Shown: positions 6,095-16,506 of the stretch, in pieces
Layout of the letters: the number at the start of each line of letters is the position of its first letter
Position numbering within the stretch: the first letter of the stretch is position 1
NCBI RefSeq assembly: GCF_055900595.2
Contig: NZ_CM148325.1
Length of the DNA stretch: 64,000 bases
Direction: 5' to 3' (one strand)
Translations under genes and position numbers: made by a program
The notes under the pieces: generated by a model
Told to the model about the DNA's origin: nothing
Seen by the model: only the letters and a program-made list of their open reading frames with translations
The model's database searches: none

Positions 6095-6109
6095 TTTAAC
6101 ATTAATGCC

Positions 6110-6135
6110 AAAAACCGGGGAAACCCGGTTTTTTT
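6110..6135 (+). terminator. rho-independent terminator after trpS
   Basis: AAAAACCGGG-GAAA-CCCGGTTTTTTT stem-loop with T-run immediately after trpS stop. Confidence 0.8.
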
Positions 6136-6203
6136 ATCCTCATTTGCAATAATCCGAAAAAATGTGAAGCGCCTCGCCGTTTCCACATCTCACAGTTGCC
6201 ACT

Positions 6204-6225
6204 TATCTTCATTTTAATGAAGATA
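6204..6225. promoter_or_regulatory. perfect 10-bp inverted repeat (TATCTTCATT-tt-AATGAAGATA), candidate operator about 30 bp upstream of yhfZ
   Basis: Palindrome read directly from sequence in the AT-rich trpS-yhfZ intergenic region. Confidence 0.4.
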
Positions 6226-6253
6226 TAAACATTCATTTTATTGAAAATATATT

Positions 6254-7159
6254 ATGCGTCGAACGTTTATCAAAAAAGAAGGCGTCGTCATCACGACACT
6301 GGCCCGTTATTTGTTGGGTGAAAAATGCGGTAATCGACTGAAAACCATAGATGAACTGGCAACTGAATGCCATTCATCCGTTGGCCTGACGCAGGCCGCG
6401 TTGAAAACGCTGGAATCAAGCGGTGCGATACGAATTGAACGCCGCGGGCGCAATGGCAGTTATCTGGTGGAAATGGATAACAAAGCACTGCTGAGTCATG
6501 TGGATATCAACAACGTTGTGTGTGCCATGCCCTTGCCCTATACCCGCTTGTACGAAGGTTTAGCGAGTGGACTGAAAGCTCAGTTTGATGGCATTCCTTT
6601 TTATTATGCGCACATGCGCGGTGCGGATATTCGCGTGGAGTGTTTGCTTAACGGTGTCTATGACATGGCGGTGGTTTCCCGACTGGCGGCAGAAAGTTAT
6701 CTCACGCAAAAAGGCTTATGCCTCGCGCTGGAGTTGGGGCCGCATACCTACGTTGGCGAGCACCAGTTGATTTGCCGTAAAGGCGAGTCCGCAAACGTGA
6801 AACGCGTGGGGCTGGATAACCGTTCGGCGGATCAGAAAATCATGACCGATGTCTTTTTTGGCAGTAGCGATGTAGAACGTGTCGATCTCTCTTATCACGA
6901 GAGTTTACAACGCATTGTTAAAGGCGATGTCGATGCGGTGATCTGGAACGTGGTAGCGGAGAGCGAACTGGCCATGCTGGGATTAGAAGCGATGCCACTG
7001 ACGAACGATCTGCGATTTTTACAGGCTACTGAAGCCGTGATACTAACGCGTGCCGATGATTACCCAATGCAACAACTGCTGCGTGCAGTGGTTGATAAAC
7101 AGGCCCTGCTTGCCCATCAACAACGAGTGGTGAGTGGGGAACAGGAACCCAGTTATTAA
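6254..7159 (+). CDS. yhfZ: putative transcriptional regulator of the yhf cluster (N-terminal HTH-like region plus ligand-binding-like domain)
   Basis: 301-aa ORF, first gene of eight co-directional ORFs; recognised as YhfZ by length and position. Confidence 0.75.
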   Translation: MRRTFIKKEGVVITTLARYLLGEKCGNRLKTIDELATECHSSVGLTQAALKTLESSGAIRIERRGRNGSYLVEMDNKALLSHVDINNVVCAMPLPYTRLYEGLASGLKAQFDGIPFYYAHMRGADIRVECLLNGVYDMAVVSRLAAESYLTQKGLCLALELGPHTYVGEHQLICRKGESANVKRVGLDNRSADQKIMTDVFFGSSDVERVDLSYHESLQRIVKGDVDAVIWNVVAESELAMLGLEAMPLTNDLRFLQATEAVILTRADDYPMQQLLRAVVDKQALLAHQQRVVSGEQEPSY

Positions 7160-7175
7160 ATGAAAGGCATCTGAA

Positions 7176-7538
7176 ATGGAAACCAGACTCAACCTGCTTT
7201 GCGAGGCAGGCGTTATTGATAAGGACATCTGCAAAGGCATGATGCAGGTCGTCAAGGTACTGGAAACCGAATGCCATTTGCCAGTGCGCAGCGAGCAAGG
7301 AATGATGGCGATGACACATATGGCGAGCGCACTGATGCGCAGTCGCCGTGGTGAAGAAATAGAGCCGCTGGATAACGAATTGCTGGCAGAGCTGGCGCAA
7401 TCCAGCCACTGGTCAGCCATTTTACAATTGCATCAGGTGTTGTTGAAGGAATTCGCACTGGAAGTTAACCCGTGTGAAGAAGGCTATTTGCTGGCCAACC
7501 TTTATGGATTATGGATGGCTGCTAACGAAGAGGTTTGA
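7176..7538 (+). CDS. yhfY: small cytoplasmic protein of unknown function (YhfY family)
   Basis: 120-aa ORF 17 nt after yhfZ. Confidence 0.65.
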   Translation: METRLNLLCEAGVIDKDICKGMMQVVKVLETECHLPVRSEQGMMAMTHMASALMRSRRGEEIEPLDNELLAELAQSSHWSAILQLHQVLLKEFALEVNPCEEGYLLANLYGLWMAANEEV

Positions 7539-7621
7539 GGCTCCCGACAAATCCACGTCGCACAACCTAAATATTCAAAAAAATGAATATTTAATTCAAG
7601 GAACAGAAACGAGGCAACAAG

Positions 7622-8785
7622 ATGTTTGTAGAAGCATTGAAACGCCAGAACCCGGCACTGATTTCCGCCGCACTAAGATTGTGGCAACAGGGCAAGATCG
7701 CCCCGGACAGTTGGGTAATCGACGTGGATCAGATACTGGAAAACGGTAAGCGGCTGATTGAGACGGCGCGGCTTTACGGCATTGAACTGTATCTGATGAC
7801 CAAGCAGTTTGGTCGTAATCCGTGGCTGGCGGAAAAACTACTGGCATTGGGCTACAGCGGCATTGTGGCGGTGGATTACAAAGAGGCGCGAGTCATGCGC
7901 CGCGCCGGTTTGCCGGTGGCGCATCAGGGGCATCTGGTACAAATCCCTTGTCATCAGGTTTCTGACGCCGTTGAACAGGGCACCGACGTCATCACCGTGT
8001 TTACACTCGACAAAGCGCGGGAAGTTTCTGCCGCAGCGGTGACGGCCGGGCGGGTCCAGCCTGTGCTGCTCAAAGTTTATAGCGACGATGATTTTCTTTA
8101 TCCGGGGCAGGAGAGCGGTTTTGCACAGCATTCGCTGCATGAGGTGGTTGCTGAAATCCAGAAACTACCGGGGTTACATTTAGCCGGATTAACCCATTTC
8201 CCTTGCCTGCTATGGGATGAGGCTGCCGGGAAAGTTTTGCCAACACCGAACCTCCAGACGCTGGTCAATGCTCGTAACCAACTTCTGAAGTCTGGAGTTG
8301 TACTTGAGCAATTAAACGCGCCTTCAGCGACCAGCTGCACTTCGCTGCCATTACTGGCGGAATACGGTGTGACTCATGCCGAACCCGGCCATGCACTGAC
8401 GGGGACGATTCCGGCAAACCAGCAGGGCGACCAACCCGAACGTATCGCCATGCTTTGGCTGAGCGAAATTTCCCATCACTTCCGTGGCGACAGCTACTGC
8501 TACGGCGGCGGTTATTACCGTCGTGGTCACGCGCAACATGCGCTGGTGTTTACGCCAGAAAATCAAAAGATTACTGAAACCAATATCAAAACTGTGGATG
8601 ACAGCAGTATCGACTACACCCTGCCGCTGGCAGGCGAGTATCCGGTGAGCAGTGCAGTGGTGCTCTGTTTTCGCACGCAGATTTTTGTCACCCGTAGCGA
8701 TGTGGTGCTGGTGTCCGGTATTCACCGTGGCGAACCGGAAATCGTTGGTCGTTATGACAGTCTTGGAAGCTCTCTGGAGGCGTAA
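7622..8785 (+). CDS. yhfX: putative PLP-dependent enzyme (alanine-racemase-like fold), function unknown
   Basis: 387-aa ORF; stop overlaps yhfW start by 1 nt. Confidence 0.75.
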
Positions 8786-10011
8786 TGGCGCGATTTGTGG
8801 TGTTAGTGATTGATAGCTTTGGCGTAGGCGCAATGAAAGATGTCACGTTGGTGCGCCCACAGGATGCCGGGGCGAATACCTGTGGTCACATCCTGAGCCA
8901 ACTGCCGCATTTGCAGCTACCAACGCTGGAGAAGCTGGGGCTAATCAACGCATTAGGTTATGCGCCAGGCGATATGCAGCCGTCAGACTCCGCAACCTGG
9001 GGTGTGGCAGAGCTGCAACATGAAGGTGGCGATACCTTTATGGGGCATCAGGAAATTTTAGGCACGCGCCCGTTACCGCCGCTGCGGATGCCCTTTCGCG
9101 ATGTGATTGACCGTGTTGAACAGGCATTAGTCACCGCTGGCTGGCGGGTTGAGCGCCGTGGCGAAGAGTTGCAATTTCTGTGGGTTAATCAGTCGGTTGC
9201 CATTGGCGATAACCTCGAGGCGGATTTAGGCCAGGTCTATAACATCACCGCCAATCTCTCTGCGATCTCTTTTGACGACGCAATCAAAATTGGTCGTATC
9301 GTGCGTGAGCAGGTACAGGCCGGTCGGGTCATTACATTTGGCGGCCTGTTAACTGACAGTCAGCGCATTCTCGATGCCGCAGAAAGCAAAGAAGGGCGCT
9401 TTATTGGCATCAATGCGCCGCGTTCTGGCGCTTATGACAATGGCTTCCAGGTCGTACATATGGGCTACGGCGTCGATGAAAAAGTGCAGGTGCCGCACCA
9501 ACTGCATCAAGTGGGCGTGCCCACGGTGCTGGTGGGTAAGGTGGCAGATATTGTCAGCAATCCTTATGGCGTGAGCTGGCAAAACCTGGTGGATAGCCAG
9601 CGGATTATGGATGTCACCCTCGACGAATTTAACACGCATCCGACGGCGTTTATTTGCACCAATATCCAGGAAACCGACCTCGCTGGTCACGCAGAAGACG
9701 TCGCACGTTATGCTGAACGTTTGCAGGTCGTTGACCGTAACCTTGTCCGGCTTGTTGAGGCGATGCAGCCAGATGATTGCCTGGTCGTGATGGCGGATCA
9801 CGGTAACGATCCGACCATTGGTCACAGCCACCATACCCGTGAAGTAGTGCCAGTGCTGGTTTATCAGCAAGGGCTGGTCCACACGCAACTCGGTGTGCGC
9901 ACCACGCTTTCTGATGTGGGGGCTACCGTGTGTGAATTTTTCCGTGCGCCACCGCCACAAAATGGTCGCTCTTTTCTTTCCTCCCTCCGGTTTGCAGGAG
10001 ACACCCTATGA
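8785..10011 (+). CDS. yhfW: phosphopentomutase-like metalloenzyme, function unknown
   Basis: 408-aa ORF; N-terminus [11 protein letters not shown] resembles the DeoB metal-binding DSxGxG motif; overlaps php by 4 nt. Confidence 0.75.
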
Positions 10012-10886
10012 GTTTTGATCCGACGGGCTTCACCCTCGCCCATGAGCATCTGCATATTGATCTCTCCGGCTTTAAAAACAACGTGGACTGCCGCCTTGAT
10101 CAGTATGCGTTCATTTGCCAGGAGATGAACGACCTGATGGCACAGGGTGTGCGTAATGTGATTGAGATGACCAACCGTTACATGGGGCGCAATGCACAAT
10201 TTATGCTCGATGTAATGCACGAGACGGGGATCAACGTGGTGGCCTGCACCGGTTATTACCAGGACGCGTTTTTCCCGCAACATGTGGCGACCCGCAGCGT
10301 GCAGGAACTGGCGCAGGAGATGGTCGATGAAATTGAACAGGGTATCGATGGCACGGAGCTGAAAGCCGGGATCATCGCGGAGATTGGCTCCAGCGAAGGA
10401 AAGATTACGCCGCTGGAAGAGAAAGTTTTTATTGCCGCCGCGCTGGCACATAACCAGACCGGACGCTCGATCTCCACGCATACGTCGTTCAGCACGATGG
10501 GGCTGGAGCAATTGGCTCTGTTGCAAGCCCACGGAGTTGATCTTTCGCGCGTCACCGTTGGTCACTGCGATCTGAAAGACAACCTCGACAACATTTTGAA
10601 GATGATCGATCTCGGCGCGTATGTGCAGTTCGACACCATCGGCAAGAACAGTTACTACCCGGACGAAAAGCGCATTGCGATGCTCCACGCGCTACGTGAC
10701 CGTGGGTTGCTGAACCGCGTCATGCTGTCGATGGATATTACGCGCCGCTCTCATTTAAAAGCCAACGGTGGTTATGGCTATGACTATTTATTAACCACCT
10801 TTATTCCGCAATTGCGCCAGTCAGGATTCAGTCAGGCCGATGTGGATGTGATGTTACGTGAAACTCCCTCTCAATTTTTCCAATAA
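10008..10886 (+). CDS. php: phosphotriesterase-homology protein (amidohydrolase superfamily, binuclear metal hydrolase)
   Basis: 292-aa ORF with N-terminal HxH metal motif ([12 protein letters not shown]). Confidence 0.85.
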
Positions 10887-10896
10887 GGACAGACTC

Positions 10897-11250
10897 ATGA
10901 AAAAGATTGGTGTTGCAGGCTTACAGCGTGAGCAGATTAAAAAAACCATTGAAGCGACGGCTCCTGGCTGTTTTGAAGTTTTCATTCATAACGACATGGA
11001 AGCGGCGATGAAGGTGAAATCCGGGCAACTGGATTACTACATCGGCGCGTGTAATACCGGGGCGGGCGCGGCATTGTCGATTGCCATCGCGGTGATTGGC
11101 TATAACAAAAGTTGCACTATTGCCAAGCCGGGCATTAAAGCGAAAGACGAGCATATCGCCAAAATGATCGCCGAAGGGAAAGTGGCGTTTGGGCTTTCCG
11201 TTGAGCATGTCGAACACGCGATTCCGATGCTGATTAACCATCTGAAATAA
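10897..11250 (+). CDS. yhfU: small protein of unknown function (YhfU family)
   Basis: 117-aa reading from ATG preceded by AAGGA; track ORF begins 39 nt further upstream inside php. Confidence 0.65.
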   Translation: MKKIGVAGLQREQIKKTIEATAPGCFEVFIHNDMEAAMKVKSGQLDYYIGACNTGAGAALSIAIAVIGYNKSCTIAKPGIKAKDEHIAKMIAEGKVAFGLSVEHVEHAIPMLINHLK

Positions 11251-11261
11251 AAGGCACGACT

Positions 11262-12566
11262 ATGGATCTGTATATTCAGATTATCGTGGTGGCGTGCCTG
11301 ACGGGTATGACATCGCTTCTGGCGCATCGCTCGGCAGCCGTTTTTCATGACGGTATCCGCCCGATCCTGCCGCAACTGATTGAAGGCTATATGAACCGTC
11401 GTGAGGCGGGGAGTATCGCTTTTGGTCTGAGCATTGGTTTTGTGGCCTCGGTGGGGATCTCTTTTACCCTGAAAACCGGGTTGCTCAACGCATGGTTACT
11501 CTTTCTTCCTACCGATATCCTCGGTGTCCTGGCGATAAACAGCCTGATGGCGTTTGGCCTTGGTGCACTCTGGGGCGTACTGATCCTCACCTGCCTGCTG
11601 CCGGTAAACCAGCTGCTGACCGCGCTACCGGTGGATGTATTAGGTAGTCTGGGGGAATTAAGCTCGCCAGTGGTTTCAGCTTTTGCACTGTTCCCGTTGG
11701 TGGCGATTTTCTACCAGTTTGGCTGGAAGCAAAGTCTGATCGCCGCCGTGGTAGTGTTGATGACCCGTGTGGTGGTAGTGCGCTATTTCCCGCATCTCAA
11801 TCCGGAATCCATCGAAATCTTTATTGGCATGGTGATGCTGCTGGGGATCGCGATAACTCACGACCTGCGTCATCGTGATGAAAATGACATCGATGCCAGC
11901 GGTATGTCGGTGTTTGAAGAACGTACGTCGAGGATTATCAAAAATTTACCCTATATCGCCATCGTAGGGGCGCTGATTGCCGCCGTTGCCAGCATGAAGA
12001 TTTTTGCTGGTAGTGAAGTGTCGATCTTCACCCTGGAGAAAGCATATTCCGCAGGTGTAACGCCGGAACAATCACAAACGCTGATCAACCAGGCGGCGCT
12101 GGCGGAATTTATGCGCGGGCTGGGTTTTGTGCCGTTGATTGCCACCACCGCGTTAGCAACAGGTGTGTATGCAGTTGCGGGCTTTACCTTTGTTTATGCG
12201 GTGGGCTATCTCTCGCCGAATCCGATGATTGCAGCGGTATTAGGCGCAGTGGTTATTTCGGCGGAAGTCCTGTTACTTCGTTCGATCGGCAAATGGCTGG
12301 GACGCTATCCATCGGTACGTAACGCGTCGGATAACATCCGTAACGCCATGAATATGCTGATGGAAGTGGCGTTGCTGGTCGGTTCGATTTTCGCAGCAAT
12401 TAAAATGGCGGGCTATACCGGATTCTCCATCGCGGTTGCCATTTACTTCCTCAACGAATCCCTGGGCCGTCCGGTACAGAAAATGGCGGCACCGGTCGTA
12501 GCAGTAATGATCACTGGCATCCTGCTGAATGTTCTTTACTGGCTTGGTCTGTTCGTTCCGGCTTAA
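11262..12566 (+). CDS. yhfT: polytopic inner-membrane protein, putative transporter (YhfT family)
   Basis: 434-aa ORF, multiple hydrophobic segments. Confidence 0.75.
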   Translation: MDLYIQIIVVACLTGMTSLLAHRSAAVFHDGIRPILPQLIEGYMNRREAGSIAFGLSIGFVASVGISFTLKTGLLNAWLLFLPTDILGVLAINSLMAFGLGALWGVLILTCLLPVNQLLTALPVDVLGSLGELSSPVVSAFALFPLVAIFYQFGWKQSLIAAVVVLMTRVVVVRYFPHLNPESIEIFIGMVMLLGIAITHDLRHRDENDIDASGMSVFEERTSRIIKNLPYIAIVGALIAAVASMKIFAGSEVSIFTLEKAYSAGVTPEQSQTLINQAALAEFMRGLGFVPLIATTALATGVYAVAGFTFVYAVGYLSPNPMIAAVLGAVVISAEVLLLRSIGKWLGRYPSVRNASDNIRNAMNMLMEVALLVGSIFAAIKMAGYTGFSIAVAIYFLNESLGRPVQKMAAPVVAVMITGILLNVLYWLGLFVPA

Positions 12567-12577
12567 AGAAGGCACCT

Positions 12578-13663
12578 ATGAAGACGTTTCCTTTGCAAAG
12601 CCTGACGCTTATTGAAGCGCAGCAAAAGCAGTTTGCGTTGGTGGATACGATTTGCCGCCATTTTCCCGGCGCGGAGTTTCTTACCCGCGGGGATTCAGGC
12701 TTAACGCCGGGCCTGAATCAACCGCGCATTACTCAGCGTGTGGAGCAGGTGCTGGCTGATGCGTTTCATGCGCCAGCGGCGGCGCTGGTGCAGGGCGCGG
12801 GTACTGGAGCAATTCGCGTCGGGCTGGCAGCTTTGCTCAAATCGGGGCAGCGTCTTCTGGTGCATGACGCGCCTGTTTACCCGACGACTCAGGTCATTAT
12901 TGAACAGATGGGGCTGACGCTTATTACTGCTGATTTTAATGACCTGTCGGCACTGAAGCAGGTCGTCGACGAGCAACAACCAGATGCCGCGCTGGTGCAG
13001 CATACGCGCCAGCAGCCGCAGGACAGCTATGTACTGGCAGATGTGCTGGCAACGCTGCGCGCAGCAGGTGTTCCAGCCTTAACCGATGACAACTATGCGG
13101 TGATGAAGGTGGCGCGCATTGGCTGTGAATGCGGGGCGAATGTCTCGACATTTTCCTGCTTCAAGCTGTTTGGGCCAGAGGGTGTTGGCGCGGTGGTAGG
13201 CGATGCTGATGTTATTAACCGGATCCGCGCCACGCTCTATTCCGGAGGCAGTCAGATCCAGGGCGCACAGGCGCTGGAAGTATTGCGTGGTCTGGTGTTT
13301 GCGCCAGTGATGCACGCGGTGCAGGCGGGGGTATCTGAACGGTTGCTGGCCTTGCTCAACGGTGGCGCGGTGGCGGAAGTTAAAAGCGCCGTTATTGCTA
13401 ATGCGCAGTCGAAGGTGTTGATTGTCGAGTTTCATCAGCCGATTGCCGCCAGAGTGCTGGAAGAGGCGCAAAAGCGCGGTGCCTTGCCTTACCCGGTGGG
13501 TGCAGAGTCGAAATATGAAATCCCGCCGCTCTTTTATCGACTTTCCGGAACGTTTCGTCAGGCGAATCCGCAATTAGAACATTGTGCAATTCGCATTAAC
13601 CCGAATCGCAGCGGTGATGAGACGGTATTGCGGATTTTGCGCGAGAGTATTGCCAGCGTTTAA
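12578..13663 (+). CDS. yhfS: putative PLP-dependent enzyme (fold type I-like), function unknown
   Basis: 361-aa ORF; candidate PLP lysine in SCFKLFG; last gene of cluster. Confidence 0.75.
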   Translation: MKTFPLQSLTLIEAQQKQFALVDTICRHFPGAEFLTRGDSGLTPGLNQPRITQRVEQVLADAFHAPAAALVQGAGTGAIRVGLAALLKSGQRLLVHDAPVYPTTQVIIEQMGLTLITADFNDLSALKQVVDEQQPDAALVQHTRQQPQDSYVLADVLATLRAAGVPALTDDNYAVMKVARIGCECGANVSTFSCFKLFGPEGVGAVVGDADVINRIRATLYSGGSQIQGAQALEVLRGLVFAPVMHAVQAGVSERLLALLNGGAVAEVKSAVIANAQSKVLIVEFHQPIAARVLEEAQKRGALPYPVGAESKYEIPPLFYRLSGTFRQANPQLEHCAIRINPNRSGDETVLRILRESIASV

Positions 13664-13767
13664 TTCTGGGAACGATGTTTTCGCAGAGTATGGAGAAAAA
13701 TACGCCCTCGGAAAATTCAGAGGGCGTTAGCTCATTAAACCGGCGTTAGCCGATTTCTGTCAGAGAC

Positions 13768-13935
13768 TTACTGTGCAGTAGGACCGCAACCGCCAATGAT
13801 TTTAGAAATAGAAATTGCCGGGTGCAGCAGGTAGTCGTAAGAGCAGTTCTTATCACGGTTTTCAATATGACCAGTACATGCAGTTAACGTAGCCAGTACT
13901 GCACCTACCAGTGCAACTTTAATAAATTTGTTCAT
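13768..13935 (-). CDS. yhfL: small lipoprotein (55 aa; signal peptide plus lipobox LTAC)
   Basis: Hand-translated minus-strand ORF MNKFIKVALVGAVLATLTACTGHIENRDKNCSYDYLLHPAISISKIIGGCGPTAQ; absent from ORF track because under 60 aa. Confidence 0.7.
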   Translation of the reverse strand: MNKFIKVALVGAVLATLTACTGHIENRDKNCSYDYLLHPAISISKIIGGCGPTAQ

Positions 13936-14129
13936 TTACATTCCCTATGTATTATATATTGATTAATATTCATTGATTATATGAATATAAGCGGACTGCT
14001 CATAAAGAACGATACAGGAATATTTAATTGGCGTCAGTGAGTGAATGACTTAATTTTGTAAGTCGCTGTAACGGTGAATATAATCCATTAGCAAATGATA
14101 TTTATTAAGAGGGTATGCTTTATTTGCTG

Positions 14130-14173
14130 AATATATAAAAAGAGTGATAAAGAGGGCCAGAATTATCTGGCCC
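14130..14173 (-). terminator. stem-loop downstream of cysG (possible terminator of nirBDC-cysG)
   Basis: GGGCCAG-ataatt-CTGGCCC hairpin 9 nt past the cysG stop, followed by a T-rich stretch on the minus strand. Confidence 0.45.
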
Positions 14174-14181
14174 GGGTAAAA

Positions 14182-15555
14182 TTAATGGTTAGAGAACCAG
14201 TTCAATTTATCGCGCAGGCCAACGACCCGACCAATAATAATTAATGAGGGACTGTTCATTTGCTGCGCCAGCTCGCCCAGTTGCGTGAGCGTACCGTCAA
14301 TCACGCGTTGCGTTACCGCCGTACCGTTTTCGACAATCGCCACCGGCATTTCGCAAGGCATTCCGTGTTCAATCAGTTTTTGCTGAATGGTCGCGGCCTG
14401 ATTAAGCCCCATATAGAACACCAGCGTCTGTTTTTCGGCTGCCAGGTTTTCCCAGTCCAGCTCGCCACCGGTTTTTAAGTGTCCGGTAATTAAGCGTACG
14501 CTCTGAGCATAATCGCGATGCGTGAGCGGAATGCCCGAATAGGCAGAGCAACCAGAAGCTGCGGTAATACCTGGAACCACCGAGAACGGAATGCCTGCAT
14601 TGCACAGTGTTTCCAGCTCTTCGCCACCACGGCCAAAAATAAACGGATCGCCGCCTTTCAGCCGCACCACGCGTTTGCCTTTTTGCGCTTCCCGCAGCAG
14701 GATCTGGTTAATCTCTTCCTGCGGTACGCAGTGATACCCCGCGCGTTTACCGACGAAGACACGATCCGCATCGCGGCGTACCAGATTCATAATATCGTCA
14801 GAAACCAGACGGTCGTAGACCACCACATCTGCCTGCTGAATTTGTTGCAGTCCTTTTAGTGTCAGCAGACCGGCATCGCCCGGACCTGCGCCAACCAGCA
14901 CCACTTCACCGCGATGATCGAGCGGTTCATTGATTAACTGTTCGGTCGTTTCGGTAATGGCTTTCTGATCGTTGTTCGCCAGCGACTGCGCCAGGCGATC
15001 ATTAACGAACAGTTTTTCCCAGAAACGGCGACGTTCACCCATCGTGGCGAACTGTTGTTTGACCCGACCGCGTAACTGCCCTGCATATTTTGCCACCTGG
15101 CCGAGATGCAGCGGCAGCAGTGATTCAAGTTTTTCGCGTAACAGTCGCGCCAGGACCGGAGAGGTACCGCCAGAGGAGACCGCGACCATGAGCGGTGAGC
15201 GGTCGATAATCGACGGCATAATAAAGCTGGCGGCTTTCGGCGCATCGACCACGTTACAGAAGATACGACGAGATTCGGCGGCTTCGCTGACGCGCTGATT
15301 AAGCGCGTCATCATCCGTCGCCGCAATTGCCAGCCAGCAGGTGTCGAGAAGGCTTTCATCAAATGGCCCTTCGACGAGGGTTAACATGCCTGCATCTGCC
15401 CATGCGGTGAACTGTGGAATAAACGCTAATGCATTCACCGTTAAGCGAGCACCTGCGTCTAACAGCAACCTTGCTTTGCGTTCCGCGACATCACCACCGC
15501 CGACAATCAAACAGTCGCGGTCGCGTAATTGGCAAAATATAGGCAAATGATCCAC
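14182..15555 (-). CDS. cysG: siroheme synthase (uroporphyrinogen-III methyltransferase / precorrin-2 dehydrogenase / ferrochelatase)
   Basis: 457-aa ORF with N-terminal NAD-binding GGGDVA motif and C-terminal methylase domain; follows nirC. Confidence 0.95.
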
Positions 15556-15573
15556 GTAAAAACCCCTTAATAA

Positions 15574-16380
15574 TTAACCGGCAGCCGTTTCAGTTTGATT
15601 AAATTTGTCCGCAACCGGACGATTAGCTTTCGGCGTAGCATACCAATAACCCAATCCCATGAATACGGCACCCGATAAAGTATTACCCAGCGTCACCCAC
15701 AGCAGGTTATGACCAATACCCGCCAGCGTGTAGGCTTCGCTGTGGTTGCCGAACCATGAGAGCGCGAACAGCGTCATGTTAGCGATGGAGTGCTCGTAAC
15801 CGGACGCAATAAACGCCAGCAGACACCACCAGATTGCGATAAATTTCGCCGCGCCTTCAGTACGCAGTGCCATCCAGATTGCCAGACAAACCAGCCAGTT
15901 ACACAATGCGCCTTTGAAGAACAGTACCATTGCCGGTGCAGTGGTCTTTGCCAGCGCGACGGAGTGAACAATACTGGTATCTACTGGCAAAAGGCTACCA
16001 CCGCCCCAGCTATAAAGCATGGCAACAAAGACGGAACCGACCAGGTTACCCAGCCAGGTTTGCGGCAGGATTGCCCACATTTGCCCGTGGCTAATGGTGC
16101 CCGCTTTCACCCCAAAGGTGAGGAACATGGTGTGTCCAGTGAACAGTTCAGAACCGGCGATAATCACCAGCGTTAAGGCGATACCAAAGGTCGCGCCCAT
16201 CACCAGAGGACGAACAGATGGATCGAGCAGGTTACCGAGCGTGAAAATCAGGATGATCCCCAGCCCCACATACGCGCCCGCCATCGCGGAGCTTACCCAG
16301 AAGCCGAGCGGGTTATTTGCCGACAGGCGTGCAATGCGCGCAGCGTTAGCCGCACACTTATTAATAGTGTCTGTAAACAT
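15574..16380 (-). CDS. nirC: nitrite transporter (formate/nitrite transporter family)
   Basis: 268-aa hydrophobic ORF; operon position after nirD. Confidence 0.9.
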   Translation of the reverse strand: MFTDTINKCAANAARIARLSANNPLGFWVSSAMAGAYVGLGIILIFTLGNLLDPSVRPLVMGATFGIALTLVIIAGSELFTGHTMFLTFGVKAGTISHGQMWAILPQTWLGNLVGSVFVAMLYSWGGGSLLPVDTSIVHSVALAKTTAPAMVLFFKGALCNWLVCLAIWMALRTEGAAKFIAIWWCLLAFIASGYEHSIANMTLFALSWFGNHSEAYTLAGIGHNLLWVTLGNTLSGAVFMGLGYWYATPKANRPVADKFNQTETAAG

Positions 16381-16506
16381 TTGATTATCCTTTAAAAAAT
16401 AAAAACAAAAAATAAAACAAAAAGTTTAAAAAATGTCCTGCAATATACTTAAGGTCATTACAGGACAATGCAAAAAGGGGAGGCATTGCGCCTCCCGTTA
16501 AAACAA

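Follow-up and report, generated by a model that had tools for sequence, protein, structure and literature searches.

The window, a 64,000-nucleotide stretch of contig NZ_CM148325.1 (NCBI RefSeq assembly GCF_055900595.2), carries a short minus-strand gene between yhfS and cysG. The features that define it are as follows.

12578-13663, plus strand: yhfS, converging on yhfL.
13768-13935, minus strand: yhfL coding sequence, 55 codons followed by TAA, for the predicted precursor of the small lipoprotein YhfL (DUF4223).
13942-13946, minus strand: Shine-Dalgarno-like AGGGA, 6 nt upstream of the yhfL ATG.
14182-15555, minus strand: cysG, upstream of yhfL.

By ORF listing and translation, the frame at 13768-13935 starts with ATG, stops with TAA and specifies 55 residues (MNKFIKVALVGAVLATLTACTGHIENRDKNCSYDYLLHPAISISKIIGGCGPTAQ), beginning with MNKFIKVALVGAVLATLTAC. 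An earlier note on this DNA, made from the sequence alone, had pointed to the same unlisted 55-residue frame on the minus strand; coordinates, length and translation all agree with ours. It had also ascribed the absence of the gene from the ORF track purely to its length, and rightly: the list defaults to 60 aa, and yhfL appears once the minimum drops below that value (here min_aa=20).

A longer N-terminus is excluded by the in-frame TAA at 13936-13938, directly before the ATG. In the orthologous DNA of Salmonella, Citrobacter and Serratia, a purine-rich AAGGA or AGGGAAG precedes the start at comparable spacing. The stop codon in front of yhfL is part of an ATG-TAA start-stop pair at 13936-13941, in frame with the yhfL start (GGGA-ATG-TAA-ATG), which is the same in K-12 and absent from the other genera examined. 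We considered this pair as a start-stop mini-ORF and dismissed the idea, since its first ATG abuts the Shine-Dalgarno sequence and the motif is missing in those other genera. It is probably a mere spacer.

The gene is yhfL, as the earlier note had named it: RefSeq labels it so in the nearest E. coli genomes ("YhfL family protein"), and 168 of 168 nucleotides are identical to b3369 of K-12 MG1655 (NP_417828.1, at 3,499,448-3,499,615), whose label reads "DUF4223 domain-containing lipoprotein YhfL". The translated product scores 129.2 bits (E=5e-38) with Pfam DUF4223 (PF13978), whose gathering cut-off is 27, and its residues 1-54 cover model positions 1-54 of 54. All family-invariant residues are present in the window protein, namely T16-L17-T18-A19-C20 at the lipobox and G22, N26, C31, Y33-D34-Y35, H38-P39, S42, S44-K45 and I47-G48-G49-C50-G51 in the mature part. 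The position also agrees with the Escherichia arrangement, as yhfL lies immediately downstream of cysG and on the same strand.

Of 5426 complete E. coli genomes, 5411 carry the gene; identity is 99% or higher in 3900 of these and 95-99% in another 1510. The K-12 locus encodes the same protein from the same 168-nt coding sequence, and shares with the window the place right after cysG, the Shine-Dalgarno sequence and the terminator stem. The sole difference lies downstream, where K-12 has frlABCDR and the window has the 3' end of yhfS. We are highly confident that the feature is an intact and already annotated yhfL, a stand-alone and probably monocistronic gene for the 55-residue precursor of the small YhfL/DUF4223 lipoprotein. 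It is a known gene, annotated elsewhere and identical in sequence to that of the reference strain, which only a length threshold had concealed.

Four further elements on the minus strand delimit its transcription unit.

13976-14006, minus strand: candidate sigma-70 promoter, with a -10 element TATAAT at 13981-13976, a weak -35-like TTTATG at 14006-14001 and a 19-nt spacer.
13693-13727, minus strand: yhfL intrinsic terminator, a hairpin at 13727-13702 with an 8-bp G+C-rich stem (ACGCCCUC/GAGGGCGU) and 2 extra pairs, then AUUUUUCUC.
13737-13756, minus strand: a further 8-bp hairpin in the yhfL 3' UTR (AAAUCGGC/GCCGGUUU), from the RNA fold.
14144-14173, minus strand: cysG terminator-like hairpin at 14173-14154 (GGGCCAGATAATTCTGGCCC), then TCTTTATCAC; directly after cysG and conserved in K-12.

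The spacer between cysG and yhfL is 246 nt long and AT-rich, with 27-34% G+C. Within it, the TATAAT at 13981-13976 aligns with the K-12 element TTAACG-19-TATAAT, which the genomic SELEX of Shimada et al. gives as the constitutive RpoD promoter of K-12 yhfL, with H-NS flagged in the same spacer (PMC3946193). RpoS holoenzyme is reported to bind the cysG-yhfL spacer as well (PMC5493296). A consensus promoter scan returned no site on the minus strand; for this reason, and given the weak -35-like hexamer, we can only infer the promoter of yhfL.

At the other end of the gene, the RNA fold of 13690-13770 (81 nt, two hairpins) has an energy of -29.2 kcal/mol, with z=-3.6, and K-12 shares the terminator stem. 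The terminator is missing from the output of the pattern scan; its loop as written spans 10 nt, and the scan allows at most 8 nt. The hairpin behind cysG separates yhfL from the nirBDC-cysG operon. The gene thus sits, as previously described, between yhfS and the cysG terminator: yhfS ends at 13663, cysG at 14182, and the hairpin occupies 14173-14154. With a terminator on either side, yhfL is most simply monocistronic. A search of 13400-14400 against Rfam with E up to 1 gave no match, so the gene is free of overlap with any known sRNA or leader.

The protein itself divides into two parts.

13879-13935, minus strand: predicted signal peptide, residues 1-19 (MNKFIKVALVGAVLATLTA), with K3 and K6 in the n-region, a hydrophobic core and the first three residues of the lipobox L17-T18-A19-C20.
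13768-13878, minus strand: predicted mature peptide and stop codon, 36 residues (CTGHIENRDKNCSYDYLLHPAISISKIIGGCGPTAQ), of which Cys20 would be lipidated.

The hydrophobic core, VALVGAVLAT, has a mean Kyte-Doolittle hydropathy of 2.45. Together with the basic n-region and the lipobox LTAC ending at Cys20, it conforms to the lipoprotein signal rule. A signal peptide with lipobox LTAC, followed by a Cys-containing mature peptide, is what the first reading of the sequence had described; besides Cys20 in the lipobox, we find two further cysteines.

We gauged the weight of this motif by scanning every ORF of the window that starts with ATG and has 30 aa or more with the pattern [LVI][ASTVI][GAS]C, its Cys within residues 15-35, which we take to be the rule of PROSITE PS51257. 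Five window ORFs pass, against 0-8 (mean ~2.9) in each of 20 shuffled windows. As a stand-alone proof of yhfL the rule was therefore rejected, shuffled windows passing it as often as the real one. The pattern by itself does not go beyond chance; the case for yhfL is built on homology and purifying selection instead.

Cleavage is predicted before Cys20, leaving a mature part of 36 residues with a net charge of 0. Its Cys31 and Cys50, 19 residues apart, are invariant in an alignment of 20 sequences and probably form a disulfide. In lipoproteins, Asp at position +2 is an inner-membrane retention signal, and otherwise the Lol system transports the protein to the outer membrane. YhfL has Thr at +2 and Gly at +3; the homologues shown have Thr or Ser at +2 and none has Asp, so the retention signal is absent. 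These sequence features make a triacylated lipopeptide of the outer membrane, 36 residues long and with a single disulfide, the most likely product of yhfL. A search of the literature for S-diacylglyceryl or N-acyl modification of YhfL, or for its globomycin-sensitive cleavage, found no report.

Two other fates of the exported protein have to be weighed against this one. YhfL could be a lipoprotein that is retained in the inner membrane and not sorted to the outer one. Exceptions to the +2 rule are known, but the residues after the cysteine are Thr (Ser in a few homologues) and Gly, and no member shown carries Asp at +2, which makes such retention quite improbable. We consider it very unlikely that signal peptidase I cuts the exported YhfL and so sets free a soluble peptide, periplasmic or secreted. 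An older K-12 product name, "conserved secreted peptide" (PMC5493296), speaks for release, as does a small mature part with two Cys, found in many secreted peptides. Against it, the 20 homologues all keep L, T and C in the lipobox and at least 90% of them the A, with T/S-G next; distant members still keep L-x-[AG]-C, and the current annotation in both K-12 and Salmonella is that of a lipoprotein. A Cys conserved where cleavage takes place is what characterises substrates of Lgt and LspA.

YhfL has relatives well beyond Escherichia. A search of 5.8 billion protein clusters found 269 homologue clusters at E up to 1e-3, and all 120 of those listed carry PF13978. Named sources among the clusters listed are Salmonella, Citrobacter, Cronobacter, Leclercia, Trabulsiella, Buttiauxella, Serratia, Erwinia, Mixta, Xenorhabdus, Hafnia and Edwardsiella. 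Both the frame and the length of yhfL are kept across at least five families of Enterobacterales. The alignment of 20 genera-level homologues has 22 invariant columns, including T16, L17, T18, C20, C31, Y33-D34-Y35, H38-P39 and I47-G48-G49-C50-G51; A19 is nearly invariant (at least 90% of the 20), and Cys20 is followed by T/S-G. The Salmonella enterica protein (STM14_RS18465 / SL3447), of 56 aa, is ~78% identical to that of the window, with which it shares lipobox and Cys pair.

Selection on the frame was estimated by the Nei-Gojobori method with orthologous DNA from Salmonella, Citrobacter, Serratia, Xenorhabdus and Edwardsiella. Pairwise pS is 0.45-0.88, near saturation, while pN is only 0.06-0.20; wherever dS could be computed, dN/dS is 0.04-0.17. 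For the mature part, pN is 0.02-0.18 against a pS of 0.32-0.88. Low dN/dS combined with nearly saturated synonymous sites indicates that the yhfL frame is under strong purifying selection. The earlier note had named a frame not kept in relatives, beside the lack of a ribosome-profiling signal, as grounds for abandoning the gene; the frame is conserved across Enterobacterales and selected at the codon level.

That yhfL is a chance, untranslated open frame with an accidental lipobox is extremely unlikely: although five ORFs of the window, and 0-8 in shuffled sequence, pass the lipobox rule, and the supplements examined contain no proteomic or Ribo-seq record of it, the full-length Pfam match at E=5e-38, the frame and length kept in at least five Enterobacterales families, the Shine-Dalgarno sequence and terminator, and above all a dN/dS of 0.04-0.17 with synonymous sites near saturation effectively refute it.

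When 1.84 billion representatives at 50% identity were searched exhaustively with a profile, YhfL had only 74 matches, nearly all shorter than ~110 aa. The two longer ones, of 129 aa (E=5e-6) and 645 aa (E=4.5e-4), are weak and cover only 14-24 profile positions; domain context gave no functional clue. The pattern L-x-[AG]-C-[TS]-G persists in intact members at greater distance, most of which have both downstream Cys as well. On these searches, YhfL/DUF4223 is a tiny family of very short proteins, restricted to Enterobacterales.

The neighbours of yhfL vary between genera, in agreement with an autonomous gene. In Salmonella it lies between bigA and trpS, not beside cysG and yhfS, and in Citrobacter between bigA and yhfS; in Serratia, Xenorhabdus and Edwardsiella its neighbours are unrelated. 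The gene upstream of yhfL in both Salmonella and Citrobacter is the giant adhesin-like bigA, not cysG, and the cysG-yhfL adjacency of Escherichia is absent in 5 of the 5 other genera examined. Across these five genera the neighbourhood is thus unconserved and offers no guilt-by-association clue.

On the downstream side in K-12, the yhfL terminator and yhfS are 5,235 bp apart, a gap filled by the fructoselysine operon frlABCDR. This operon is missing from the window, where its flanks, the yhfL terminator and the yhfS 3' end, join at ~13670-13697. Of 5422 matching complete E. coli genomes, 2107 have yhfL and yhfS contiguous in this way. Loss of frl has been published for phylogroup B2 (PMC5996543).

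Compared with K-12, the window diverges unevenly. The 216 nt at 13745-13960, comprising yhfL, its Shine-Dalgarno sequence and the first 3' hairpin, have zero mismatches. The 500-nt bins around them are 92-96% identical (4-8% different); at ~6% divergence, ~13 differences would be expected over this length. The identical patch is probably a recombination mosaic rather than the result of nucleotide-level constraint, since synonymous sites of yhfL are saturated between genera. Over a larger segment, ~6100-16500 (yhfZ to nirC), identity to K-12 is 86-96% per 500 nt, and 94.0% over 6112-13669. The rest of the aligned window is ~97-99% identical, and the overall value is 96.7%.

Identity to window positions 13500-14300 is 99% or higher in just 12 of 5424 matching records. 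Given the divergent segment and these few close matches, the window therefore belongs to an uncommon E. coli lineage or contains a divergent imported segment at ~6100-16500. Within this segment, the yhfW ORF of the window (8785-10011) is intact, with 408 aa; in the annotation of the nearest RefSeq genome, NZ_CP098223.1, yhfW is a pseudogene that contains an internal stop.

The literature treats yhfL throughout as a known, uncharacterised gene. In Salmonella the product is called a "putative outer membrane lipoprotein" (PMC3760250, PMC12070745). A Salmonella CRISPRi screen for escape from IgA agglutination found two yhfL spacers enriched; a yhfL deletion mutant had no effect, and the CRISPRi result was not reproduced (PMC12070745). 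Upon Nac overproduction, yhfL is listed as the most strongly repressed gene (PMC5217608). Its expression was noted to correlate with laboratory-evolved antibiotic resistance (PMC4351646), and it occurs in a multi-stress gene list (PMC9501238). The literature searched yielded no mention of DUF4223 and no validated yhfL phenotype. The gene does not appear in the supplements of membrane-proteome and acid-stress Ribo-seq papers (PMC7055658, PMC10746267), files that are perhaps incomplete and for a protein from which few tryptic peptides are expected.

An AlphaFold2 model built on the 20-sequence alignment has a mean pLDDT of 61.8 and a pTM of 0.31. In it, the signal peptide is a helix, residues 22-35 make a short hairpin and the tail has a pLDDT below 50; a model of such quality lends no fold support to the disulfide or to a binding surface. 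A sequence-profile search of the PDB with E up to 1 found no match, hence no relative with a solved structure.

These elements suggest a course of events from gene to membrane. Transcription would start in the AT-rich cysG-yhfL spacer and end at the hairpin and U-tract at 13727-13693, as the sequence and the published SELEX data imply. Translation would start at the ATG at 13935, 6 nt past AGGGA. From the lipobox, we expect the precursor to be exported by Sec, to receive a diacylglycerol on Cys20 from Lgt, to be cut before Cys20 by LspA and to be N-acylated by Lnt. With Thr and not Asp at +2, the 36-residue lipopeptide would then be delivered by Lol to the inner leaflet of the outer membrane. 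There, Cys31 and Cys50 would probably be joined by a DsbA-made disulfide, closing a loop of 20 residues. This loop would carry the nearly invariant motif CSYDYLLHPAISISKIIGGC, and the predicted disulfide would enclose the nearly invariant segment YDYLLHPAISISKIIGG.

As YhfL is very short, too much so for an enzyme, almost invariant and without conserved neighbours, partner binding fits it best; we speculate that it binds a conserved partner in the envelope rather than acting in catalysis. A more specific proposal is that YhfL may serve a conserved outer-membrane machine or porin of Enterobacterales as a dedicated lipopeptide subunit or regulator, locked by a disulfide; we regard this as a long shot. 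Analogues for such a role are the small lipoprotein partners of Lpt and Bam that have lately been recognised. One of them, LptM (YifL) of the LptDE translocon, is a very small Enterobacterial outer-membrane lipoprotein and an accessory subunit; it is comparable to YhfL in size and has the same type of signal peptide and lipobox, an analogy of working mode only. The two have no homology in the mature part. Membership of YhfL in the LptM family (NCBIfam NF047847) was examined and rejected: the score, 12.6 bits, stays below the cut-off of 27.7, and the match is confined to the signal peptide, residues 1-20. Since the YhfL of the window is identical to that of K-12, the window adds nothing to the question of a subunit or regulator.

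Nothing new is discovered here, and the merit of YhfL as a functional target is already evident from existing annotation; the locus illustrates that a 60-aa ORF cut-off conceals genuine, annotated small genes. If YhfL were indeed such a subunit or regulator, this would explain why a 36-residue peptide stays nearly invariant from Escherichia to Xenorhabdus despite having no fixed gene neighbours. As a putative small envelope lipoprotein found only in Enterobacterales and held under strong purifying selection, YhfL is a reasonable target for functional work on small proteins.
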